The notes under the pieces: model-generated
The model's input: only the letters and a program-made list of their open reading frames with translations
What the model was told of the DNA's origin: nothing
Databases searched by the model: none
Source: an uncultured Holophagae bacterium
GTDB taxonomy: Bacteria > Acidobacteriota > Thermoanaerobaculia > Thermoanaerobaculales > Sulfomarinibacteraceae
DNA length: 64,000 nucleotides
NCBI GenBank assembly: GCA_963710645.1
Contig: CAVQBD010000006.1
Location: 46,550 to 110,549 of the forward strand
Direction: 5' to 3'
Part shown: one piece after another, positions 26,370 through 42,988 of the stretch
How positions within the stretch are numbered: the first letter of the stretch is position 1
Layout of the letters: each line of letters opens with the position of its first letter
Made by a program: the position numbers and the translations under genes

Positions 26370-27498
26370 GTGGGTCGCATCTACCTTTCACCACCGCACA
26401 TGGGCGGCGACGAGTTGGACCTGGTTCGGGAGACCTTCGAGTCCAACTGGATCGCCCCGCTCGGCCCTCAGGTGGACGCATTCGAGCGGGAGTTTGCCGC
26501 AACTGTCGAGGTGCCGCACGCGGCGGCGCTGTCATCGGGAACCGCCGGGCTGCACCTCGCGTTGGAATTGACGGGGGTGGGCCGGGGTGACACGGTCGTG
26601 TGCCCGACGCTGACCTTTTCGGCCACGGCCAACGCCATCACTTACGTCGGGGCGGAGCCGGTGTTCGTGGACTCGGACGACGCCAGCTGGAATCTGGATC
26701 CAGAATTGCTCCGCCGAGGAACTCGACGCGGCCGCGCGCTCCGGGAAGCAGCACGCCGCCGTGATTGCCGTGGACCTCTATGGCCAGTGCGCCGACTACG
26801 GGCAGATCGTTCATCTGTGCGCCGAGTACGATGTTCCGTTGATAGAGGACGCGGCCGAGGGTCTGGGGGCGACGTGCAATGATCGGCCTGCCGGCGGCTT
26901 TGGCCGCTGCGGGGTGTTTTCATTCAACGGCAACAAGATCATCACGACCTCCGGCGGCGGCATGCTGGTGTCGGACGACCAAGCTCTTGTGGCCCGGGCA
27001 CGCTATCTGGCGACCCAGGCCCGCGACCCGGCGCCTCACTATCAACACTCGGCCATCGGTTACAACTACCGCATGAGCAACGTCTTGGCGGCCATCGGCA
27101 GGGGCCAACTCCGGGTGCTCGTGGATCGGGTGGCGGCTCGGCGCGCCAACTTCGACCACTACCGCCGCGCGCTCGGTGATCTGCCGGGAGTGGAGTTCAT
27201 GCCCGAGACATCGTACGGCCGTTGCACCCGGTGGCTCACCTGTCTGACCATTGATCCTGCTTTGTCTGGCGTGACCCGCGAGGACCTCCGCCTCGCCCTC
27301 GAGGTCGAGGACATCGAAGCCCGGCCGGTGTGGAAGCCCATGCACCTGCAGCCCGTGTTTCAAGGCTGCCGCGTCCGGGGTGGCGACATCGCGTCGCGAC
27401 TTTTTGATCACGGCCTGTGTCTGCCGAGTGGATCAAGCTTGACCGAGGAGGACCGGAATCGTGTGATCGGCATTTTTCGGGGTCGATTTGGAGACTGA
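26370..27498 (+). pseudogene. DegT/DnrJ/EryC1/StrS aminotransferase (PglE-like), single frame change near 26706-26712
   Basis: ...YLSPPHMGGDELDLVRETFESNWIAPLGP... then, after a one-base shift in ...gaattgctccgccgag..., ...AVIAVDLYGQCADY...IEDAAEGLGA...FSFNGNKIITTSGGGM.... Confidence 0.85.
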
Positions 27499-29595: not shown

Positions 29596-30401
29596 TCAGC
29601 GATCGGGACGGAACAGCCGACTGAACCTCGTGCGGAGGAGGGAAAGAGGAGAGACCGGGAGACCGAGCCAGTTGGTGATCCCGAGTTCCAAGGCTGTGTC
29701 GTACGGCGAGGTCTTTCGGTCGAGCCGTTGGGCCATGCTAGGTGTGTCGTACCAGGTGCCGTCCTCGTTGGCGGAATATGCTGCGGCGCAGAATAGGACG
29801 GTCTCCACGTTGGATGGATCCTGCGGGCAGTCTGATGTCCGGGCGGCCACAAATGCCGGACCGGGTATTCGCACCGTGTGCCCGGCCATCTCCACCTCGC
29901 TCGTTTTTTGCTGGAGAAGCTCGAAGAGTGAGCCAGCACTTCCCAGCGCACGCCACGGTGACCCGGCAAGGCCTCGAAATATGTGTCCTCGTCTTTCGGA
30001 TCCACCATCGGCACCAGCAGGGCGCCCTCGGCCGGGACCAGATCCCAGCGGCCGAGCACCGCCCTGCCGGCAGAGGATGAGCTGAACACGACGACCGGGA
30101 CACCGCTCTTTCGGACCTCGGTGGCGATGTCCCCGAGCAAGAGGGCCGTTGCGTGTTCGAGGGATGCGGCGGCACCCCGGCACTGGGACAGGTTCACGTT
30201 GCCGGGGATGTCCCACCCGGCGGCATCATGGATCTCCTTGACCAGGTGCCAGGCGATACCGCGAAGAAACGTCGGAGTGGCCGAGTCCTCCTCGAAGAGA
30301 CGGGCGATGTGCAGGGCGCGGGAGACGTCCGGCCCCTCGGGCGCATACCGCCGGTGCCAGAGTTCGATCACCGTCTGAATTGTCCCGATACTGACCGTCA
30401 T
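29596..30401 (-). pseudogene. hypothetical protein, one frame change near 29930
   Basis: Coding-looking sequence runs from MTVSIGTIQTVIELWHRRYAPEG... to ...SSFSSKK, then continues in another frame (...EVEMAGHTVRIPGPAFVAAR...ELGITNWLG...). No family recognised. The 176 codons upstream of this Met in ORF 29538-30929 look non-coding. Confidence 0.35.
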
Positions 30402-30516: not shown

Positions 30517-31731
30517 ATGGTGCGAAGCCAATTTCGTTTTGATCCCCCCGCCGCAGAGCCGAGTTCCGAGTTGGTGTGGGTGTTGGCGAGGGCCTTCGGC
30601 CCGGTGGACACGCCTCGCGATGATCGGGTGGATCGGGCGGTGCTCTTCGACCTCGCCGAACGGCTGGGGCTGACGGAAAGGATCGGGGCACGGATTCCGG
30701 CCTCCGTGTTGTATGTCGAGGTGGGAGAAATGGCCGCGGCGGAATTTGCACAGGCCCATGGCGACGCCGCCGCTCTGGAACTGGCCTCCTCGGGCTTGTG
30801 CCGCAAGCTGGGAGCCCTCGGCCGTGAACTCGGGTTGCCGATCATCGTGACAAAGGGTGCGGCGTTGCGGGAGTCCGGCGTCACCGCCACCGGTTCACGG
30901 CAGGCATGCGACATAGATGTTCTGACCATCGCGTCACGACTCGACGATCTGTACGAAGCCCTCGTCTGCGAGGGATACCGGGTGTCGGGAATGCGGGCCG
31001 CCGAACACGAGCTTGACGCCCTCTTTCACCCCTCCGGGTTGATGGTCGAGATTCATCGATACCTCAGAGGCGTCCGGATCGCAGGCGATCGTTCTGCAAC
31101 CGCGGATGACCTGCTCGACAACGGGCTCTGTCGAGGATCAGAGTCTGATCCGGGTGGAGTGCTGGTCCCCGAATCCCAGGTTCTGCTGGCCCACGTGCTG
31201 GTCCACGGTATCGCCCAGCACGGAAATGCGCCCTGGTCATACCCGTTGTTGCGGATGGTGGGGGACGTGCAGGACCTGGGATTGGACCACGAAGGCTGGT
31301 CGAGTTTTCTCGCCAGGGAGTGGCGGTGGATCGCCCGGGATGTGAGCCGGGAGGAGGCCACATCGGTTTGGGAGCTCGGCCATAGGCTCGGGGGCGGGGA
31401 GTCTGCCGATGCGATCATTGCCGGCGATGACCCGGTCGGGCTGATGTTGTCCCACATGGTGGCTGGGACGCTGGATGAGGAATATCAGCGGTCCTTGCGA
31501 TTTTCGCACCTGGCACGGCCGGTGGCGGGCACAACCGTTGGCCATACGCTGCTCCGAAAAGTGATGACCAATCTCTGGCTGCGTCGCGGCGAGATCGACC
31601 TGATCTACGGACCCCAGCCCAATGCCGGCCGGTACCTGGCCATGCGGCTGTGGCGCCCCCTGGACCTCGCTCTGCAGGCCGCCGGTTCCATCCGGGCGCG
31701 GCGGGCGTTCAAGAAGGGCCGCAGGAAATAG
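30517..31731 (+). CDS. nucleotidyltransferase-family protein (PF14907 / NTP_transf_5-like)
   Basis: ...IIVTKGAALRE...RQACDIDVLT...LMVEIHRYL... is the pattern I associate with the uncharacterised nucleotidyltransferases found beside PqqD/HprK-like genes. By-eye call only. Confidence 0.6.
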   Translation: MVRSQFRFDPPAAEPSSELVWVLARAFGPVDTPRDDRVDRAVLFDLAERLGLTERIGARIPASVLYVEVGEMAAAEFAQAHGDAAALELASSGLCRKLGALGRELGLPIIVTKGAALRESGVTATGSRQACDIDVLTIASRLDDLYEALVCEGYRVSGMRAAEHELDALFHPSGLMVEIHRYLRGVRIAGDRSATADDLLDNGLCRGSESDPGGVLVPESQVLLAHVLVHGIAQHGNAPWSYPLLRMVGDVQDLGLDHEGWSSFLAREWRWIARDVSREEATSVWELGHRLGGGESADAIIAGDDPVGLMLSHMVAGTLDEEYQRSLRFSHLARPVAGTTVGHTLLRKVMTNLWLRRGEIDLIYGPQPNAGRYLAMRLWRPLDLALQAAGSIRARRAFKKGRRK

Positions 31732-31952
31732 CCTGGTGTTGAAGTCATACGTGCGATCCACATCATAAAACCAGGACGTCATTTTGCAGTATGCCGTTCG
31801 GGATGAACCAACCCGGAACGACCGTCCGGTAGCTGCGATCGGCTCCGATGCCCAATATGAGATGTGTACATCGACGATGCAATAGTTGACGAATGTCACA
31901 AACTCACCGACTATTGTGTGGTCTGATGGTGTGGACGACTGGAGGGCGCATC

Positions 31953-32165
31953 ATGGCTGAGTTGCACCTCAGTGATCTTGCAGCGGATCTCGAGAGCTAT
32001 ATGGCGGAGTTATCCGCGCGGAGATCCTCAGCGTGCAAGGCCCGGCCCGAGAACCCCTTCGACGGCCGTGACACCCCGGATCTGTTCACCATCCTGTCCG
32101 AACCCTGGAGTGACACCGAGGTCGAGGAGTTTCTCGAGTTGGTGAGAGTGCCGGAAGCCCTGTAG
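31953..32165 (+). CDS. small acidic hypothetical protein (70 aa)
   Basis: GGAGGG lies 6 nt before the ATG, and its own terminator sits 27 nt downstream. The upstream leader is locally AT-rich. Sequence: MAELHLSDLAADLESYMAELSARRSSACKARPENPFDGRDTPDLFTILSEPWSDTEVEEFLELVRVPEAL. Confidence 0.5.
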   Translation: MAELHLSDLAADLESYMAELSARRSSACKARPENPFDGRDTPDLFTILSEPWSDTEVEEFLELVRVPEAL

Positions 32166-32191
32166 CTTCATTCCTTGGCAGAGATTTCAAC

Positions 32192-32219
32192 GAGCCCCGA
32201 TCATCGGGGCTCTTTTCTG
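32192..32219 (+). terminator. rho-independent terminator
   Basis: GAGCCCCGA - tca - TCGGGGCTC (perfect 9-bp stem) followed by TTTTCTGT. Confidence 0.65.
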
Positions 32220-32224
32220 TTGGA

Positions 32225-32735
32225 CGCCAGCCAAGTTACACGTTAAACGTTGCGCGTTAAACGTCCGCCCGACCCCGCTTCGACCTGTCACCCTGAGCGA
32301 GCGAGTTCGACGAGCGAGTCGAAGGGTCTCCTCAAGTAGAAAAGAGAATTCCTGGGCAAGCATCGCCCGTCTGCACCGGTGGAGATCCTTCGACTACGCG
32401 GCCCTTTGGGCCGCTCCGCTCAGGATGACAGCGATGGGGGTATGCAACGGGCTCACGCTAAACGTTCCCATCGATCCCCGCCTACTGTCGGACCGAGTGG
32501 TTTCGGGGAGGGTGGGTGGGGAATTCAGAATTGAAAACTCAAAACTCAGAATTCAGCGTCCGACGTTCAACGTTCAACGTTCAACGTTCAACATTCAACA
32601 TTCGAGATTCCCACCCGCTCCCGCCTGCCGTTGGGGGGGGGTGGTAGGGAATTGAGAATTGAGAATTAAGAATTGAAAATTTCCCGTCTCACCCACAAAC
32701 CCCAACGTTCAACGTTCAACGTTTAACTTTCAACT
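32225..32735. repeat. composite repeat region: ACGTTAA/CAACGTT heptamers, nested palindrome, G4 motif and AT-rich heptamer arms
   Basis: Components: acgttaaacgttgcgcgttaaacgt (32240-32264); inverted pair 32287-32331 / 32381-32429; GGGGAGGGTGGGTGGGG (32505-32521); gaattcagaattgaaaactcaaaactcagaattcag; (caacgtt)n at 32563-32606 and 32703-32735. Confidence 0.8.
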
Positions 32736-34562
32736 TCTTCCCGTTCCCATCTGCTCTTTCCACGCCTTGGCGTATTTTCCCTTGAGAGCGAGGAGTTCCT
32801 CGTGGGTGCCCGACTCCACGATCCGTCCGTCGTCCATGACGTGGATGATGTCGGCGCGCATGGCGGTGGTGAGCCGATGGGAGATGATGATGGCGGTGCG
32901 CCCCTCGGCCACCGTCCGGAAACGCCTGACCCAGTCGATCTCGGACCACGAGTCCATGGCGCTGGTGGGCTCGTCAAGCAGAATCACCGGTGCATCGCGA
33001 ACGGCCGCACGGGCCAGAGCGATCCTCTGCCACTCGCCCCCGGACAACTCGGTTCCTCCGGAAAACCAGCTGCCCAGCAGGGTGTCGATCCCGTCCGGCA
33101 GTCGTTCGAGGAGCGCATCGGCACCCGCTGTCGACACCGCTGCGGCCACCCGAGCGTCCGTCGCCTCGTCGTCGATGGTTCCCAGTTCGATGTTCTGTCG
33201 GACGGTGGCCGAGTAGTGCATTGGCTCCTGGAACAGCACGGTGACCAATCGCCGAGCGTCGGCCAACTTCATCAGACGAAGGTCGCGCCCGCCGATCTCC
33301 ACCTGGCCTGCGTCGGGATCGTAGAGTCGGCACAGAAGTTTGAACAGCGTGCTCTTGCCTGCTCCGTTGACGCCCAGCAGCGCCGCGATCTGACCCGGCG
33401 CCACCTCGAGATCGAAATGGTCGAAGATCAGTCGATCCAGGCTGGGGTAGCGGAACGTGACGTTACGGAACCGTACAGACGGTGGCGATTGGGAATCCGC
33501 GAACTTGGCGGTCGGGGGATCCTCGATCTGCGGTCTCACATCCAGGAACTCGAAGAGGTTTTGCAGGAACAGCGTGTTTGTGACCACCTGACCCATCGTC
33601 TCGAGCAGGGACCGCATGAGTTTTTGGCCCTGGTTGAAGGCCTGGAAGAACATGGCCAGGTCGCCGAGAGTCGCCCCTCCCCGAATCGTTTGAACCACCA
33701 TCCAGATGACGGCTCCACCCATCACGGCAAGGGCGGCCGCGCCTGCGGCCATTTCAGACAGCGCCTGGGATTTGGCGAGATCGATCTGCTCGCCCCGGAG
33801 TCGGCCGCGGAGATCGCGGAAACGTCCTGCAAACTCTTCGCCGAGGCCGAAGAGTCGGATTTCCGGTGCCGGATCACGGTGGGTGAGGAGCCAGTCGAAG
33901 TAATACGTTCGTCGGATATCGGCCGTGGTTTCGATCCTCCATCTGTACTGTTTGACGGAATACCGCATGACGACCAGCAGCGCCGGGACCGAGCTGATAA
34001 CCAACGCCAGCGGAACCCACCAGCCGAACTGGGCGAGGACGGCGGCCATGGCCACCAACGTCATCCCGTGTTGCACGAGGCCGCCAAGGCCCTCGACCAG
34101 GGCGATCGGTCGGTAGTATGAGTCCGTCCGGGCACGGTGCAGTTGGTCGTGATACTCGGGAGTCTCGTAGTACGCGAGATCGGCCGCCACAGCCTGCCTG
34201 TGAATCAATCCGGAGAGATGATCCGACACGCGCTCAGCCTGAGCCGTTCGCACCCATCGGCCTGCAGCGGCGAGCACCTCCGAGACGAGCAGCAGGGCGG
34301 CCATCAGCAGGGCGAGGACCAGAGGCTGTTGGATGGCCTCCCAATTCCCTCCCGCGTCCGCCGCAGCCACGATGCTATCAACAAGGATCTTGGTGATATA
34401 CACGATGGCCACCGGCAACACGCCCTGGACCACCAGCAGCAGGACCCATGCCACGGTCCAGCGTCCGCCAGCTTGCCGGACCAATCCAAGCGCACGCGGG
34501 ATGTGCGGCAGCTGAGCCCTGACCTTTTTCAGCTTTGAGGTGATTTCGCCGCCTTGGGGCAT
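32730..34562 (-). CDS. ABC exporter, fused permease/ATPase (McjD/MsbA-like half transporter)
   Basis: Six-TM N-domain, then Walker A GVNGAGKSTLFKLL, signature LSGGEWQRIALARA and Walker B ILLDEPTSAMD. 610 aa, intact. Confidence 0.9.
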   Translation of the reverse strand: MPQGGEITSKLKKVRAQLPHIPRALGLVRQAGGRWTVAWVLLLVVQGVLPVAIVYITKILVDSIVAAADAGGNWEAIQQPLVLALLMAALLLVSEVLAAAGRWVRTAQAERVSDHLSGLIHRQAVAADLAYYETPEYHDQLHRARTDSYYRPIALVEGLGGLVQHGMTLVAMAAVLAQFGWWVPLALVISSVPALLVVMRYSVKQYRWRIETTADIRRTYYFDWLLTHRDPAPEIRLFGLGEEFAGRFRDLRGRLRGEQIDLAKSQALSEMAAGAAALAVMGGAVIWMVVQTIRGGATLGDLAMFFQAFNQGQKLMRSLLETMGQVVTNTLFLQNLFEFLDVRPQIEDPPTAKFADSQSPPSVRFRNVTFRYPSLDRLIFDHFDLEVAPGQIAALLGVNGAGKSTLFKLLCRLYDPDAGQVEIGGRDLRLMKLADARRLVTVLFQEPMHYSATVRQNIELGTIDDEATDARVAAAVSTAGADALLERLPDGIDTLLGSWFSGGTELSGGEWQRIALARAAVRDAPVILLDEPTSAMDSWSEIDWVRRFRTVAEGRTAIIISHRLTTAMRADIIHVMDDGRIVESGTHEELLALKGKYAKAWKEQMGTGRS

Positions 34563-34574
34563 GAACGGAGAGTA

Positions 34575-35615
34575 TCAGAATCGAGACGTGAGCGACTCGA
34601 GTGGACGAACCTCGTCGCATAGTCTCAGGAGGGTGGATGTGGGATCTTCCAGCAGATCGCGTCCGAGCCGGACGTCGAATCCGCCACATCCCTCGGCGAG
34701 GCCCGTCAGTACCGACAGTGCCTGAGTTCGTGCGCTGGGGTACCTGGGCGACAGGGTCAGCAGCGAGGCCGACGAAACAAGGGCGATCAGGGCTTCCTGT
34801 GGGGGAATCGGTCGGATTCTGCTGGTCCGGAGACGTCGGTCGATTTTCAGGTGCCACAGTCGACCCGGAACCACTACGGAGGATAGGTTGTGGGGACAGG
34901 CCCGGCGATGGAGCACATGAGAGTCCGCGCCCTCGGTGGCCGCTGCCCTCAGCCGAGGCGGCAACACGCCCAGGGTGGCGTCTCGGAAGCTGAAGTACTC
35001 CCTCAAGGGGCCAAGCTGGACTCGGCCGTCGCACAGGCGGGCGAGGACCGAATCGTCCGACGTGACCTGTCCTCCGGATCGGATGCTGGCTGCGGCGATA
35101 GTGGACTTTCCAGCCCCGCTGCCGCCCACACCAAGAATGGTGACGGGGCCGATCTGGAATGCCACTGCATGGAGGCAGGTCACCCCGAGCTGGCCAAGGG
35201 CGAGACCCACGGCGGTCTCCATGAGATCTGGCGACGGACCGTCGAGCCATCGGCCCACCGGGTCCCATTCCACGTGGATGATCGGGGATCCCCGGGTCAG
35301 TCGAATCAGGCCGGTAGGAAATCGGAGCTCGTCGCCCCCTTTTGTCACGCGATGCACTGGCTGGGTTGTTCCGTCTTGTGACGGAATTGAAAAGCGACGA
35401 CCACCAGGTTTCGAACGGGTGACTTCCAGCACGGCCACAGGGGGGGGCCGTGGATCTGCCGTGGACCGAGCGACGCGGGTTTCCCACAATCTGGCCAACC
35501 GTTCGGCCTGATCAATTGGTAGACCTCGAACTGTGACCGCTGTATGGGGCCGAGTGCCGGTGAACTGGAACTCGAGGACCATGGAATCAACCCTCTGCGC
35601 CACCGGTATCCTCAT
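34575..35615 (-). CDS. HPr-kinase-like (HprK-related) P-loop kinase
   Basis: ...LHAVAFQIGPVTILGVGGSGAGKSTIAAASIRSGGQVTSDDSV... matches the HprK C-terminal domain core (HA-x-A...G-x-SG-x-GKS...DD). Confidence 0.7.
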   Translation of the reverse strand: MRIPVAQRVDSMVLEFQFTGTRPHTAVTVRGLPIDQAERLARLWETRVARSTADPRPPPVAVLEVTRSKPGGRRFSIPSQDGTTQPVHRVTKGGDELRFPTGLIRLTRGSPIIHVEWDPVGRWLDGPSPDLMETAVGLALGQLGVTCLHAVAFQIGPVTILGVGGSGAGKSTIAAASIRSGGQVTSDDSVLARLCDGRVQLGPLREYFSFRDATLGVLPPRLRAAATEGADSHVLHRRACPHNLSSVVVPGRLWHLKIDRRLRTSRIRPIPPQEALIALVSSASLLTLSPRYPSARTQALSVLTGLAEGCGGFDVRLGRDLLEDPTSTLLRLCDEVRPLESLTSRF

Positions 35616-35717
35616 GGAAAGGTGCGATCATGGGACGGCTGCGAAGTCTGCCGAAGGCGACGAAAAGAACCAGCCCGCTTGCTGGCTGGCGCTCCCATGT
35701 TCTTTGATTAGGGCGTG

Positions 35718-35918
35718 CTACCCACTGCTGCCGAGTCCGCCGGGGCTGAGTTTCGTCCTGCCGCCAGCCACGTTGTCGGGATTGTCGCCCACAGTCAATC
35801 GATTCACGATCGAAGCAATACGACGGACCGAAATTGCCGGCCGCTCATAGGGGCGCAGAATCCGGTTGCGATCCGTGTCGGGTGTGCACCGCTGAGACAT
35901 TTTGTTGGGCAATTTCAT
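35718..35918 (-). CDS. candidate RiPP (lasso-type) precursor peptide, 66 aa, non-canonical core
   Basis: GGAG lies 6 nt upstream of the ATG. The ORF sits between the cyclase and kinase genes on the same strand. Sequence: MKLPNKMSQRCTPDTDRNRILRPYERPAISVRRIASIVNRLTVGDNPDNVAGGRTKLSPGGLGSSG. It has a YxxPxI leader-like motif and a T-V|G junction, but no Asp/Glu at core positions 7-9. Confidence 0.35.
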   Translation of the reverse strand: MKLPNKMSQRCTPDTDRNRILRPYERPAISVRRIASIVNRLTVGDNPDNVAGGRTKLSPGGLGSSG

Positions 35919-35991
35919 GATGGACTCCGGTCCTTTTGTCATTTCCCATGTCCGACTGAATTGTCTGAACCTATAATCTAGCATATTGTAC

Positions 35992-37810
35992 TCAAGAAGT
36001 GCAAGTCATCCTCGCGATGTAAACCTCGGCGACGCTCAAGTGCATGACGTTGAAAAGCGTCGCATCGTCGTGATCGGGGGCTTGGTCTACTCTTCTCATC
36101 CATGCGGGGCTAACAACTCCCTGCTCCACCAGATTCCACGAAGTCATGTTGGATTCGGCAATTACCTTGTGTGCGGTGGCCTTGAATGCAGCGATATAAC
36201 CCGTCTTGCTGATGCGATTCAACACCGTTGGTGGCGCCATGCCCTCGCCAACCAACCGCAGGAGGTGCTTGTCGCGGAGTCCGTGAGTGGGCGCCCTGCC
36301 CGGAATCCTCAGGGCGAAGTCAATGATATCGAGGTCCATGAACGGGCATCGGCGTTCCACTCCGTACCTGGCCATGACCTGCTCGCCGCTTTCGAGCTCA
36401 TGCCAATCCTGCACGAGGATCAGCCTGCGAAGAAGGGACCGGCGCGACCGGCTTCGACGATGTCGTCTGTCGAGAGCCGCGATACGGCCGTCGAGGTCGA
36501 CGCGGGGTCGATCCCGGTTCGGGTGGAGCCAATCGACCGAATCGACGGATGCGGACTTGGGCTGGACGCGGCGCAACGCTGGTTGGACGATGTGGTTGTG
36601 GACGAACCCAAAGCGCTTCTGCCCGGGTGTGAGTTGAAATCTGAAGAGGTCACGAACGAATCCGGGCAGATTCCGGAGAGAAGATAATCGGCCAAGTAGG
36701 AGGTGGTGCCGCCAAGCCATTCGTCGGCGCCCTCGCCCACGAGATCGACCCGGCGACCATCCTGGGACAGCCGCCGGGCGTGTCGTTCTGCAAAGGGCAA
36801 CCCACCGAAGTGCAGACCATCCACCTCGGCCGCAAGTCGCGCGATATCGGGCCGAAGGTCGTCGTTTCTGAGGTCCATCAGCACGCCGTTTGAACCCGTG
36901 AAGCGATGAGTCTCCAAGATCCGCTCGGTCTCATCGCATTCCAGTCCCGGAAAGACGTGGGAGTAGGCCAGGCCGTGTGCCGCCACCGGATCGCCCTGTC
37001 GAATGCGGTGAGCCAGCAAGCCCCACAAGACGGTGGAGTCGATGCCGCCGCTGAGGCTGACCGCGAAAGGTGCGTCCCGGAGGCACCGATTCAATGCGCG
37101 GTCGAGGAGGACCTCGAGCTCGACGACGAGTTGGTCGACATCGTATCGGCCCTCGCCTTCGGACGGGGGCACCCAGTAGGCATCGCCGCGGGCCTCCGTT
37201 CCGTTCAGTTCCGCCGGGAATTCGATCGCTGTGTTCGGTTGCAGGCGGGCGACCTGACGTACCAGAGTCCGGGACGGTTCTTCGAATTCGACGAGCATCT
37301 CCTGGACAAGTCCGTCCATGTCGATCTCCGGCGTGACGCGGCCCCCGCGGTCACCTGGCGGATCTCGGTGGCGATATAAGTGCGACCATGGAATGACCCG
37401 TGGAACAAGGGCTTGCGGCCCACGACGTCGCGGACCGCAAGCAGTTTGCGCCGACTCCGGTCATAGATGAGCATGGAGAACTCACCGCGGAGTTCTGCAA
37501 AAAGCTGGCCGCCCAGATCCTCGTAGGCCACTGCCACTCTGGCGGCGTGGGTGGCATCGGCGGGGATGTGCCAAGAGCGTGAGGAGGCAATTTCGGCCCA
37601 ATTGCCGATGTATCCGTGAATGGCTACGGTCCAGTTGCCTTCGGTGGCCAGCGACGCTTCGCCATCGGAAGCCTGAATTCCGACAGCCACGCCGTGCTCC
37701 ACGCAATGCGTCGCGGTGCCGCGATATGGAGACCGCTCCATCATTCGGCGCAGCCGCACCTCTAGCTCCGGGTCCCCACTTTCGCCGATGATTGCTACAA
37801 TCGCGCCCAT
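35992..37810 (-). pseudogene. asparagine-synthetase-like protein (lasso cyclase McjC-like), two frame changes
   Basis: N-terminal amidotransferase-like part is in ORF 37205-37822. PP-loop SLSGGIDSTVLWGL is in ORF 36420-37319. The C-terminal part is in ORF 35992-36720. The combined length of about 600 aa fits the family. Confidence 0.75.
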
Positions 37811-37826: not shown

Positions 37827-38279
37827 ATGGAATACGAACAAGATCAGCCACGCTTTCGTGACCCCGGCGACCTCGTTCTCTTCGTCAAGGCGCTGCCCAT
37901 GGCCCGGCTTGCCCAGCGCGTGCGGTCGACTCCGTTGCCCGAGGTCGTGGCTGCAATGGGCGCCGGGGGCGGGCGAGAAATGGATTCCCGGCGGGCGCGG
38001 GTGGCCGCCGGGAGGGCGTGTTCACTGTTCTGTCGGTTGTTTGGCGGCCTCGACTCGTGTCTGACGCGGTCGCTGGTCGCGGGCGCCATGTTGTCGGCGG
38101 CTCACGAAGTCCTGCTGCACGTGGGCTTCAGGCCCGGCTCCCGCGAGGTGCCGCTCGACGGACACGCGTGGTTGACGGTGGACGGCGAGCGGCTGGACTT
38201 GGAGCGTCCCGATGAAGACGTGCGGCCGTACACCGAGGTGTTGGACATCCCGTTTTCGGCGAGAGCAAGGAGCAGATGA
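37827..38279 (+). CDS. transglutaminase-core protein, lasso peptide B2 protease-like (PF13471-like)
   Basis: ...GGLDSCLTRSLVAGAMLSAAHEVLLHVGF...PLDGHAWLTVDGERL... carries the Cys ... His-Ala-Trp pattern of McjB C-terminal domain proteins. The start is 16 nt from the divergent cyclase start. Confidence 0.7.
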   Translation: MEYEQDQPRFRDPGDLVLFVKALPMARLAQRVRSTPLPEVVAAMGAGGGREMDSRRARVAAGRACSLFCRLFGGLDSCLTRSLVAGAMLSAAHEVLLHVGFRPGSREVPLDGHAWLTVDGERLDLERPDEDVRPYTEVLDIPFSARARSR

Positions 38280-38578
38280 TGAGTCGATTGGAAGAGCTTT
38301 CGCGGCTTCTGGCCTCGGATGACGAATTCACTCAGCAGAAACTGGCGGACGACACCGGGGTGATTCTGGATGTGGACTCGCTGCAGGTCTACTCGCTGAA
38401 CCCAACGGGTCAATTTCTGATCGACTGTCTGAGGCAGGGGATCGTCACCGAGGAGGGTCTGATGGAGCGGATGGTTGCCGAGTTTGACGTCGAGGAAGAG
38501 GTGGCGAAGCACGACGTCGCCGGATTTCTGGCCGAGCTCGAAACCTACCTGATCGACAAACGAAAAACGAAGAGCTGA
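38276..38578 (+). CDS. PqqD-family protein (RiPP recognition element, lasso B1-like)
   Basis: About 100 aa: ...VILDVDSLQVYSLNPTGQFLIDCL...GLMERMVAEFDVEEEVAKHDVAGFLAELE..., a typical PqqD layout. The ATGA start overlaps the B2 stop. Confidence 0.7.
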   Translation: MMSRLEELSRLLASDDEFTQQKLADDTGVILDVDSLQVYSLNPTGQFLIDCLRQGIVTEEGLMERMVAEFDVEEEVAKHDVAGFLAELETYLIDKRKTKS

Positions 38579-38598: not shown

Positions 38599-38629
38599 AT
38601 TCACTATTCACTATTCGCTGTTCACTTGC
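38599..38629. repeat. (TATTCAC)n heptamer arm, no nearby partner
   Basis: Read directly: attcactattcactattcgctgttcacttgc. Confidence 0.8.
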
Positions 38630-38696: not shown

Positions 38697-39840
38697 ATGA
38701 CTGAGCCGGCATCCGACGTGCGTCAGCGGCCCACGAAGGCGTCGTGGGTTGGGTTACTGATCGGCCTGGTCATCGGCCTGATAGTGGTGCTGGGCATTCT
38801 GGCCGTCTTCGTGGGCGTGATCTTCATCGCGCTGGTGGCCGCCGGGTTGCTTCCACCAACCCTACGTCAGGCTGACCGAATGGTTCCGCGACCGCAGACG
38901 GTTGGCGGCACTGGCCATCTGCGTAGCCCTGGTGTTGGCGCTCATGGTCCCGCTGTCCTTCACCGCGATCGAAGTGTCGCAAGAGGCTCTCGACTTCTAC
39001 GAGATCTCCACGTCGCAGCTCTCCGAGCGGAGTCTGCTCGACGCCATCGACGCGAACCGTGGAGCTCTCGACAGGGTCAACCAACTCTTGGCTCCCTTGG
39101 GCGCCTTCTTGACACCGGAAGACGTGGTGGACCAGATCGCTGCCGCCGGAGCTGGGCTTGGCGGATTTTTCTACAAGCAGGGAGTGTCGCTGGCTACCGG
39201 TCTGGCGCGTTTTGTGATCGGTTTTCTCGTGTGGGTCATCGTGCTGTATTACCTGCTGGTGGACGGGCCGGCGGTGCGGGCCTGGTTCCGGGATACCATT
39301 CCCTTGCCGGCCGACGAGCAGGAGTTGTTGCGCCATCGATTCATGGACATGGCGTCGTCCCTGGTGGTCGGGAACGGCGCGGCAGCCATCATTCAGGGCG
39401 TGGCGGGCGGGCTCGTGTTCGCCATGTTGGACCTGCCGGGGCCCGTGCTGTGGGGCGTCGTGATGGGGGTCCTGGCGTTCATTCCGGTGGTGGGGATCTC
39501 CCTGGTCTTTGTGCCGGTGTGGGCTGTGCTTGTGCTCGCCGGACAGACCGGCAGGGCGTTCGCGCTGCTGATCCCGTTGGCGATTCTGGCGACAGTGGTG
39601 GAGTACTGGCTCAAGCCGGTCCTGGTTGGCCGCCGGGCGCAGCTCCATACGTTGTTGGTCTTTTTCTCGCTGCTTGGGGGTTTCGACGCTTTCGGGCCGG
39701 TCGGCCTGTTGATCGGACCGTTGATGATGACTGCGTTTCTGACCCTGGTGTCCATCTACCGCGAAAACTACCGTCCGTTTCTTGTCCACGCGACCGGCAA
39801 TACGATCCGGGACGGCGGTTCGTCAGCGGACGAGGATTGA
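38697..39840 (+). pseudogene. AI-2E family transporter (PerM/YhhT-like), one frame change near 38860-38900
   Basis: The N-terminal TM (frame of 38697) joins ORF 38902-39840, which has ...FLVWVIVLYYLLVDGP..., ...GVVMGVLAFIPVVG... and ...EYWLKPVLVG..., typical of the family. Confidence 0.8.
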
Positions 39841-40107
39841 GAAACGCGGAAGAACACTGACCAGCACGGACAAACACGGAGAATAGGCTGACTGGCGCGG
39901 GTGGCGTCGAAGCGATTCACCTTCGGGCTGAAGGTCGGGGGTTCGTCGAGGAGGCGGCTCTGGGTTTTCTTTTCGATGGAGTCACACAAGGACTCGTGAC
40001 CCAGCCAGATTTTCCTGTTCTGTGTTAGTCGGCTTTGTTCGGTGTTGTTCCGTGTGGCAGTTTCCGCCACCCCGTCCCCTGACTGTCGGCGGGAAAATCC
40101 TAAAATG

Positions 40108-40582
<475 letters not shown>

Positions 40583-40615
40583 GCTTCAAAACCTCGCGAG
40601 TGGGGTTGGTTGGTC

Positions 40616-40691
40616 TGGAGCGGGCAACGGGATTCGAACCCGCGACTCTCAGCTTGGGAAGCTGATACTCTACCAACTGAGTTATGCCCGC
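40616..40691 (-). tRNA. tRNA-Gly (anticodon CCC), CCA encoded
   Basis: The reverse complement GCGGGCATAACTCAGTTGGTAGAGTATCAGCTTCCCAAGCTGAGAGTCGCGGGTTCGAATCCCGTTGCCCGCTCCA folds as a 76-nt cloverleaf. The anticodon loop is TTCCCAA. Confidence 0.9.
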
Positions 40692-40814
40692 CCGCGCGGA
40701 GAGTCACTCTAGCACAGGATCCAACTATGAAACAATTTGCCGCAGAGGCTGTGCCGTGACGGGCGGAGAATTTCTGGCGCGTTTATTGCATGGTATTGGT
40801 CGATGGAGCCAGGA

Positions 40815-41258
40815 ATGCGTCAAAGAGGATTCACACTTATCGAGCTATTGATCGTGGTGGCAATCATCGGGATCGTGGCGGCCATCGCAATCCCGAATCT
40901 GCTCAGCGCCATCCAACGGGCTCGGCAGAAACGGACCATGTCCGGTATGCGGGGGATCTCGGAAGGAATCGAAATCTACCAGCAGGACCATGGTTCCTAC
41001 CCGGAATACGCTGACGTGCCCGTGTCGGCACTGGCAGGCGATCTCGCGCTCTACGTCAGGCCCTTCGATCCCAAGGATGGCTGGAATCGAACCTATTGGT
41101 ACGCCGCGAGCGGCGATTACTACACCCTGATTTCATACGGCAGCGACGGTCAGGACGATGGTGGTCATTCCCTGGGCGAGACCGGTCACTTCGAGTGCGA
41201 CATCCTGTTTTCTTCTGGCGTCTTTGTCCAGTGGCCGGATGGCGTCCAGCGACAGTGA
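40815..41258 (+). CDS. prepilin-type N-terminal cleavage/methylation protein, GspG-like pseudopilin
   Basis: MRQRGFTLIELLIVVAIIGIVAAIAIPNLL... is a class III signal peptide; C-terminal ...YTLISYGSDGQDDG.... GGAG lies 7 nt before the ATG. Confidence 0.8.
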   Translation: MRQRGFTLIELLIVVAIIGIVAAIAIPNLLSAIQRARQKRTMSGMRGISEGIEIYQQDHGSYPEYADVPVSALAGDLALYVRPFDPKDGWNRTYWYAASGDYYTLISYGSDGQDDGGHSLGETGHFECDILFSSGVFVQWPDGVQRQ

Positions 41259-41422: not shown

Positions 41423-41533
41423 TCGAATTTTGAATTCTCGATTCTCAATTTTGATTTCCCCCGCGTCCCAGCCAGAGGACGGGGGGCGGGTGGAAATTCA
41501 AAACCCAAAACTCAAAATTCAGAATTCTCGATC
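41423..41533. repeat. ORF-less hairpin element (AT-rich heptamer arms plus C/G clamp)
   Basis: Read directly: tcgaattttgaattctcgattctcaattttgatttccccc - about 19 nt - gggggcgggtggaaattcaaaacccaaaactcaaaattcagaattctcgatc. It is flanked by gcgaatttcgagttgcagattgcagatttcccc (41331-41363) and CAACGTT-like repeats (41545-41570). Confidence 0.8.
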
Positions 41534-41629
41534 CAGCGTTCGACTTTTAACGTTCAACGTGTAACGTTGAGCGTCCAACCCTTATCCAAAACGCCATGGA
41601 ACCGCAGGTGCGGGTACACTGCCCGCGTC

Positions 41630-42817: not shown

Positions 42818-42848
42818 GTCGCGTTTCGCGCGAGCTGGGCTGGTCAAA

Positions 42849-42988
42849 CCTTCGACCCTCGACCTTCGACCTTCGACTTTCGACCTTCGACTTGCGACCT
42901 TCGACTTGCGACATTGACCCATCCTGATGGCCGGGCGGGTGGTCGGTGTCCTTCCCGTCTCGAATTTCGCATTTCGCATTTCGAATTG
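42849..42988. repeat. tandem heptamers (TTCGACC / TTGCGACC)n followed by (ATTTCGC/ATTTCGA)n
   Basis: ccttcgaccctcgaccttcgaccttcgactttcgaccttcgacttgcgaccttcgacttgcgac (42849-42912) and tctcgaatttcgcatttcgcatttcgaattggg (42958-42990), between convergent genes. Confidence 0.85.

Follow-up and report, generated by a model that had tools for sequence, protein, structure and literature searches.

Among the described systems closest to the one discussed here is the bsf cluster, found in Bradymonas sediminis FA350 (Duan et al. 2023, PMC10368454), which encodes a lasso peptide precursor (A) together with B1, B2, C, D, K and N proteins. Its kinase, BsfK, phosphorylates Ser3 of the ring while the precursor, BsfA, still bears its leader; the junction between leader and core was assigned from the spacing of the YxxPxL motif, and the residue at −2 is Ile (PMC10368454). 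Thr(−2) is frequent in lasso leaders, not absolute, and Ile or Val at this position is documented in kinase-linked clusters (PMC10368454). A second group, the paeninodin/pseudomycoidin group of Firmicutes (precursors PadeA, ThcoA, BaceA and PsmA), also has an HPr-kinase-like enzyme in its lasso clusters, with or without an NTP_transf_5 nucleotidyltransferase.

Here we describe a locus of this kind in the window, a 64,000-nucleotide stretch of DNA from an uncultured Holophagae bacterium. Its cluster genes, in window coordinates, are these:

30517–31731, plus strand: NTP_transf_5 nucleotidyltransferase (N), by Pfam; syntenic in the related locus L001
32730–34562, minus strand: ABC exporter (D), by Pfam and NCBIfam
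34575–35615, minus strand: HPr-kinase-like peptide kinase (K), with weak Hpr_kinase_C and HprK_rel_A matches over the P-loop region; syntenic in all loci
35992–37810, minus strand: lasso cyclase (C), by Pfam GATase_7 and Asn_synthase; three overlapping ORFs in this assembly
37827–38279, plus strand: leader peptidase B2, transglutaminase-like, by Pfam Transglut_core3 and NCBIfam lasso_biosyn_B2
38276–38578, plus strand: RRE or PqqD-like protein B1, by Pfam PqqD; its best NCBIfam hits, to lasso PqqD chaperones, fall short of the cut-off

The cluster is complete, with genes for C, K, D, B2, B1 and N. B2 scores 37.6 bits against lasso_biosyn_B2, the cut-off being 33. The B1, B2 and C neighbourhood of the precursor recurs in two related loci, L001 (a 489-kb contig of ‘uncultured Holophagae bacterium MFD03804.bin.1.68’) and L006. 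The kinase and the NTP_transf_5 gene, the pair by which clusters for phosphorylated lasso peptides are recognized, occur together with these genes in the window, and both are syntenic in L001. The locus belongs to the known kinase- and nucleotidyltransferase-associated lasso clusters, and nothing in it departs from the lasso paradigm.

Two features of the gene layout can be mentioned here. The starts of the cyclase (37810, minus strand) and of B2 (37827, plus strand) are divergent and 16 bp apart, as they are in L006, so that the promoters of both must lie inside the opposite coding region. And a 90-codon ORF (31893–32165, plus strand) occupies the 1-kb gap of lower GC content between the nucleotidyltransferase and the ABC exporter; the corresponding gap in L001 contains a 70-codon called gene, on the opposite strand relative to the cluster.

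The precursor gene proposed for this cluster is small, and is defined by two elements:

35718–35918, minus strand: precursor gene, 66 codons plus a TAG stop (gene callers, seven syntenic peptides, third-position bias, no indel)
35925–35928, minus strand: GGAG ribosome-binding site, 6 nt upstream of the precursor ATG

Read from 35918 to 35718 on the minus strand, the ORF encodes MKLPNKMSQRCTPDTDRNRILRPYERPAISVRRIASIVNRLTVGDNPDNVAGGRTKLSPGGLGSSG, followed by the stop. It is flanked by the Asn-synthase-like cyclase (35992–37810) and the HPr-kinase-like gene (34575–35615). An initial annotation, made without database searches, described it as a 66-codon minus-strand ORF between cyclase and kinase, in an AT-richer stretch and with GGAG 6 nt before its ATG, and was correct throughout; GC content is 0.52–0.54 across 35700–36150 versus 0.60–0.67 in the flanks. 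Gene callers predict the ORF, and the CCGGAG sequence at its ribosome-binding site is unchanged in all four of the loci aligned. Compared with the precursor DNA of L001, that of the window differs at 13, 9 and 25 sites in codon positions 1, 2 and 3, respectively. A relaxed scan of 29–41 kb, for a YxxPx[LIVMF] motif plausibly spaced from a stop, finds this ORF to be the only credible small one outside the alternative frames of other genes. The canonical lasso-precursor regular expression has no match over the same 29–41 kb, and none of the Pfam and NCBIfam models matches the peptide.

Queried by itself in a word-index protein search, the peptide retrieved nothing but its own sequence. Homologues were reached through the kinase and synteny first, and by profile search second. 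Homologues of the kinase (56–72% identity) gave the route to the syntenic loci; the order cyclase, small ORF, kinase, exporter is present in L001, L002/L003, L004 and L006–L008. All the related loci recovered have a homologous ORF of 66–69 codons between their cyclase and kinase genes, which upholds the candidacy that the initial annotation gave to this peptide as the precursor of the cluster. Three more sequences (P0012, P0013 and P0015) were added by the profile search, to give seven distinct precursors. These are fairly close (51–71% identity, n = 7) and colinear, without frame breaks, and the changes among them fall mostly at third positions. When a profile of the peptide was run exhaustively with HMMER against 1.84 billion representative proteins, it returned only the two known clusters, plus spurious matches in large repetitive proteins; as no further relatives appeared, the precursor family is narrow. 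A scan of genome contigs with a five-sequence alignment of the kinase returned only the L001 contig. Two extra matches in the metagenome scan proved to be false positives, universal-stress-protein genes that share the string ‘AERLARLWE’.

Conservation and context indicate that the 66-codon ORF is a genuine, conserved lasso-peptide precursor gene of an uncultured marine-sediment Holophagae bacterium. The initial annotation allowed that the ORF might not be the substrate of the cluster. This reading is very unlikely, given the synteny that has been kept, the leader motif, and the conservation of both the upstream region and the ribosome-binding site.

The leader of the peptide is conserved in two separate places. 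Its predicted extent, and that of the motif within it, are as follows:

35799–35918, minus strand: predicted leader, residues 1–40, placed by the spacing that puts Y24 at −17 and by conservation; the junction may shift by one residue either way
35832–35849, minus strand: Y24-E-R-P27-A-I29, the predicted YxxPx[IV] RRE-binding motif (conservation; literature motif)

The residues invariant in all seven sequences are S8, Q9, C11, T12, T15, L21, R22, Y24, P27, R33, I37, V38, D48, G52, G53, L57, G60, G61, L62 and G63. Y24 and P27 are among these, and position 29 is Ile or Val in all homologues, so the leader is of the YxxPxL, RRE-binding type as defined in PMC10368454. At the end of the leader, I37 and V38 are invariant, residue 39 is Asn or His, and residue 40 is variable. 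In lasso leaders generally, the residue at −1 is usually variable.

The other conserved place lies well upstream of the RRE motif, in residues 8–22 (35855–35897, minus strand), where S8, Q9, C11, T12, T15, L21 and R22 are invariant. The N-terminal third of the leader (S8-Q9-x-C11-T12-x-x-T15) is conserved as much as the RRE motif itself. Such an N-terminal block is unusual for lasso leaders, and may let the kinase or the nucleotidyltransferase dock at a second place on the leader.

Where the leader ends and the core begins is the main question posed by this peptide. The initial annotation placed the junction at T(−2)-V(−1)/G(+1) (the slash marks the cut), a position that puts the motif Tyr at −20 and leaves D2 and D5 as the only acidic residues of the core. 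It gave both of these facts correctly, and recognized that this reading provides no acceptor for the macrolactam. The comparison with homologous precursors bears out the last point: residues 50–52 are never acidic in the homologues. It also points to a different junction, and to the following assignments:

35721–35798, minus strand: predicted core, residues 41–66, LTVGDNPDNVAGGRTKLSPGGLGSSG
35775–35777, minus strand: codon of D48 (core D8), which is predicted to be the macrolactam acceptor and is the sole invariant acidic residue past the leader motif
35793–35795, minus strand: codon of T42 (Thr in six sequences, Ser in one), core residue 2 (or 3) and candidate phosphosite, earlier read as Thr(−2)

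Distances from the motif aromatic provide the yardstick. Our reference set (n = 40) combines BsfA with the precursors listed in the PMC10368454 supplement. Between the aromatic and residue −2 the offset is 15 in 34 of these 40, 13 in five and 16 in one. The offset from the aromatic to the acceptor is 23–25 in 40/40, a range that follows partly by construction, from an offset of 15 and rings of 7–9 residues, such that only the six precursors with deviating offsets form an independent test; these six also fall inside it. In the alignment of the seven homologous precursors, D48 is at Tyr+24 throughout, which is the canonical Y(−17)...D/E(+8) spacing of BsfA, citrulassin and stlassin. Val38 is at Tyr+14, the Asn or His that follows is at Tyr+15, and T/S42 is at Tyr+18; a Thr(−2) situated 13–16 residues past the motif aromatic does not occur in the precursor family. 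An Asp or Glu at core position 7, 8 or 9 is absent if the cut is at TV/G, and is present as D8, D9 or D7 if the cut is at 40/41, 39/40 or 41/42, respectively.

In our best model, the acceptor appears to be missing because the junction was misplaced: the leader would be cut about three residues earlier, and the invariant Asp would occupy ring position 8. The initial annotation had listed this among its alternatives (‘cleavage three residues earlier’, L1...D8), and the comparative data, in which D48 is invariant and at Tyr+24, favour it over the junction that was given first. The most likely arrangement is a leader of residues 1–40 and a core of L41–G66, with Asn or His at −2 and a predicted macrolactam between residue 1 (Leu, Met or Lys) and D8. 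We rate a cut at 40/41 as most likely because it is the only junction that keeps the offset found in 85% of the references; the conserved residues 37–39 ahead of it, and a variable residue 40 in the −1 place, fit as well. Several things count against it, nonetheless. Core position 1 would be Leu in the window and Met or Lys in the homologues, and such variation is unusual within one family; Asn/His(−2) is without precedent. To our knowledge, only Thr and Ile/Val have been documented at −2 of lasso leaders. T/S42, followed in six of the seven sequences by Gly44, resembles a canonical T-x-G junction. And the tail of the predicted core is rich in Gly, with few bulky residues to act as plugs (R14, K16, L17 and L22).

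Two neighbouring cuts use the same acceptor. A cut at 41/42 is possible; it would make the Thr or Ser the first residue of the core, and close a 7-membered ring at D48. A cut between N39 and residue 40, which we consider unlikely, would place Val at −2 and Tyr at −16, close a ring between residue 1 and D9, and put the Thr or Ser at core position 3. There are points in favour of this last arrangement. V38 is invariant, and becomes a −2 residue of the Ile/Val type; the Thr/Ser comes to occupy the position of the Ser3 phosphosite of BsfA (PMC10368454); the resulting P8-D9 matches the rings of the paeninodin group; and the metanodin family affords examples of Gln and Asn at core position 1. However, an offset of 14 from Tyr to −2 is found in 0/40 references, and residue 1 would be Arg, Ala, Gln or Lys, the most variable column of the region.

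The T42-V43/G44 junction itself, which would lengthen the leader and move Tyr to −20, has the conservation of its residues in its favour, position 42 being Thr or Ser in 7/7 sequences and position 44 Gly in 6/7; moreover, B1 keeps the Tyr that is thought to contact Thr(−2) (PMC10368454). Were this site used, the cyclase would have to link residue 1 (Gly or Asp) to the invariant Asp5, to give a lariat whose 5-residue lactam could not be threaded, or else the product would remain a linear peptide that is merely phosphorylated, or phospho-glycosylated. We regard this as improbable. In P0011 the ‘G+1’ residue, position 44, is Asp; core positions 7–9 carry neither Asp nor Glu in any of the homologues; the offset of +18 for T/S42 lies outside the 13–16 of all 40 references; and the cyclase is conserved, and is intact in relatives. 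We know of no lasso cyclase that forms a 5-residue ring.

Two more distant candidates, each found beside a distant homologue of the kinase, were considered as outgroups for fixing the junction, and are too divergent to do so. They, too, defy the canonical rules. One (L014:1459–1602) ends in REWVEPELKRLEAGAAESQRGAIPDGGGGFQGS; it has a G-x-x-P-D block, a Gly-rich tail that terminates in Ser, and an Asp at Trp+22. The other (L017:149–295) ends in KPYHRPRLLVYGDLRMLTQTLGPKGMFDNVTMTTMSFS, in which a Thr1–Asp9 or a Gly1–Asp7 ring is possible.

The absence of an acceptor from the TV/G reading could also be put down to damage, real or apparent: the cluster might be decaying, or an indel might distort the ORF, with the result that the peptide has ceased to work as a substrate. 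The initial annotation raised both of these ideas, and the assembly lends them some colour, inasmuch as the cyclase is spread over three ORFs in three frames, and other genes in the window are split too. Comparison with the intact cyclases of L001 and L006 by tblastn shows one change of frame near 37340, from +2 to +1, and another near 36672, from +1 to +3. The causes are 1-nt homopolymer deletions, after 37338 and 36672, both at runs of G on the coding strand. Near-identical short-read contigs from other sediment metagenome runs have the extra base at 36672 (X1 and X3) and at 37338 (X4). Since independent contigs carry the missing bases, the frameshifts are assembly errors of the window contig; the cyclases of L001, L006 and L007 are intact. 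The precursor ORF, for its part, is covered in full by one X1 contig, and for the most part by two X2 contigs. This check against Logan contigs found no indel and no substitution in 35718–35918, and the ORF is colinear with its six homologues. The same acidic pattern recurs, further, in seven homologous sequences under purifying selection. These data contradict both ideas, a lost acceptor and an undetected indel in the core, and we give the damage reading hardly any credence.

Other genes of the window seem to have suffered in the same way. Further 1-nt discrepancies with the contigs occur at 29941, 38853 and 39931; an AI-2E transporter gene is split by a single-base error (38697–39860 / 38902–39840); and a DegT-like aminotransferase gene (26370–26882 / 26761–27498) looks similarly split, with no indel-bearing contig over that region. 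There is a practical warning in this: what looks like a pseudogene in a long-read MAG contig may be a homopolymer error.

On either side of the precursor gene, the DNA that does not code for protein has features of its own:

35919–35991, minus strand: conserved spacer from cyclase stop to precursor start, 73 nt; mean column identity 87% in four loci
35669–35690, minus strand: terminator-like hairpin, followed by TTCTTTT, about 28 nt past the precursor stop (alignment and scan)

The spacer is more conserved, at 87% in the four loci, than the coding DNA around it. It contains TTGAGT...TTATAG and a near-repeat, TCAGAC-AA-CTCAGTC, and is probably the promoter/operator or the 5′ untranslated region of the precursor; a sigma-70 scan upstream of the precursor found no consensus match, and a search of RNA runs returned none that contains the region. 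The hairpin is at the same place in L001 and L002 according to the alignment, and its free energy is not exceptional (z = −0.6). Many intergenic spacers of the window contain heptanucleotide tandem arrays (units such as GAATTCA, TTCAACG, CTACTGC and ACCTTCG; e.g. at 32521–32734, 38599–38626, 40108–40150, 41494–41568 and 42848–42987). In the metagenome runs the word depth of contigs rises sharply, to 100–450x at 39884–40951 and to 14–26x at 31874–32941, and these stretches are thus shared by many genomes in the samples.

How might the peptide be made? Sequence comparison and analogy with the described systems make it probable that the ORF encodes the precursor (A) of a class II lasso peptide of the kinase/nucleotidyltransferase-associated kind, whose leader is cut about three residues upstream of TV/G and whose acceptor is D48. 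The precursor would be transcribed from its own conserved upstream region, and B1 (38276–38578) would bind the leader strand Y24-x-x-P27-x-I29. With the leader still attached, the HPr-kinase-like enzyme would phosphorylate a Ser or Thr of the core, the candidates being T/S42 and the Ser/Thr cluster at 64–66, and the NTP_transf_5 enzyme might then decorate or extend the phosphate, as in pseudomycoidin. B2 (37827–38279) would remove the leader about three residues upstream of T42-V43/G44, most likely at R40/L41; Y, P, I/V and Asn/His would then occupy −17, −14, −12 and −2, respectively. The cyclase (35992–37810) would activate D48 (i.e. D8) and join the new N-terminus (Leu; Met or Lys in the homologues) to its side chain, so that a Gly-rich tail of 18 residues would pass through a ring of eight. 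Finally, the ABC transporter would export the product. We infer the exact scissile bond, the lasso fold and the phosphosite by analogy with characterized lasso peptides.

The phosphosite deserves a further remark, because the initial annotation suggested that the C-terminal GSSG suits the adjacent kinase. This is plausible to the extent that Ser or Thr is found at position 64 in all homologues. But the C-termini end in G, GG or GK, never in Ser, so the C-terminal Ser mode of paeninodin is not literally applicable, and T/S42 would be an equally good candidate by analogy with Ser3 of BsfA.

The case has some general bearing. Automated scoring of lasso precursors leans on Thr(−2), Gly1 and Asp/Glu at positions 7–9, and would misplace the junction of the window peptide, or reject it altogether. 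This example shows that spacing from the YxxPxL motif, together with what the homologues conserve, is a better guide. New, if confirmed, would be Asn/His(−2), Leu/Met/Lys(+1), the long leader with its bipartite conservation, and a first lasso family from the Holophagae. The unusual residues at −2 and +1, if confirmed, would widen the substrate rules for lasso leader peptidases and cyclases, and Holophagae, an uncultured marine-sediment lineage, would be added to the sources of phosphorylated lasso peptides.

Set against the known systems, the peptide family is, judged by its sequences, new and narrow within the kinase/nucleotidyltransferase-associated lasso peptides. Citrulassin A, stlassin and leepeptin all have Leu1, and in citrulassin A and stlassin the acceptor is Asp8, at Tyr+24. 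These peptides differ from the window family, however, in being actinobacterial, with Thr(−2), short leaders and no sequence similarity, and their clusters are not described as having a kinase or an N gene. Metanodin, which is derived from a metagenome, has Asn at core position 1, and a relative has Gln (PMC12670498); unlike the window peptide, it has retained Thr(−2); its cluster is gammaproteobacterial, and its sequence is unrelated.

In addition to the kinase, the paeninodin group has in common with the window peptide Pro-Asp at the predicted site of ring closure (so in the cores of paeninodin, ThcoA and BaceA; therbactin has it as well), a tail that is acidic or contains Ser, and modification on the linear precursor, as would apply here. 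It differs in having Thr(−2), an aromatic residue at −15, an Ala1–Asp9 ring and a C-terminal Ser phosphosite. The bsf cluster and that of the window are made up of the same genes, namely A, B1, B2, C, D, K and N. In protein sequence the two are far apart: K is 37% identical over 52 aa (in the P-loop region), and the B1 and B2 matches are marginal. Gene order differs too, A lying downstream of C in the window, with B2-B1 divergent. BsfA has Gly1 and Ile(−2), whereas the window family would have Leu/Met/Lys1 and Asn/His(−2), a 40-aa leader with a conserved N-terminal block, and a 26-aa, Gly-rich core. Like the leader predicted here, that of BsfA is Y(−17)xxP(−14)xL/I(−12), with a residue other than Thr at −2. 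When the two are aligned on Tyr, Y(−17)KKPQL...AIIR/GTSGNEVD8 of BsfA and Y(−17)ERPAI...IVNR/LTVGDNPD8 of the window peptide coincide at T2, G4 and D8.
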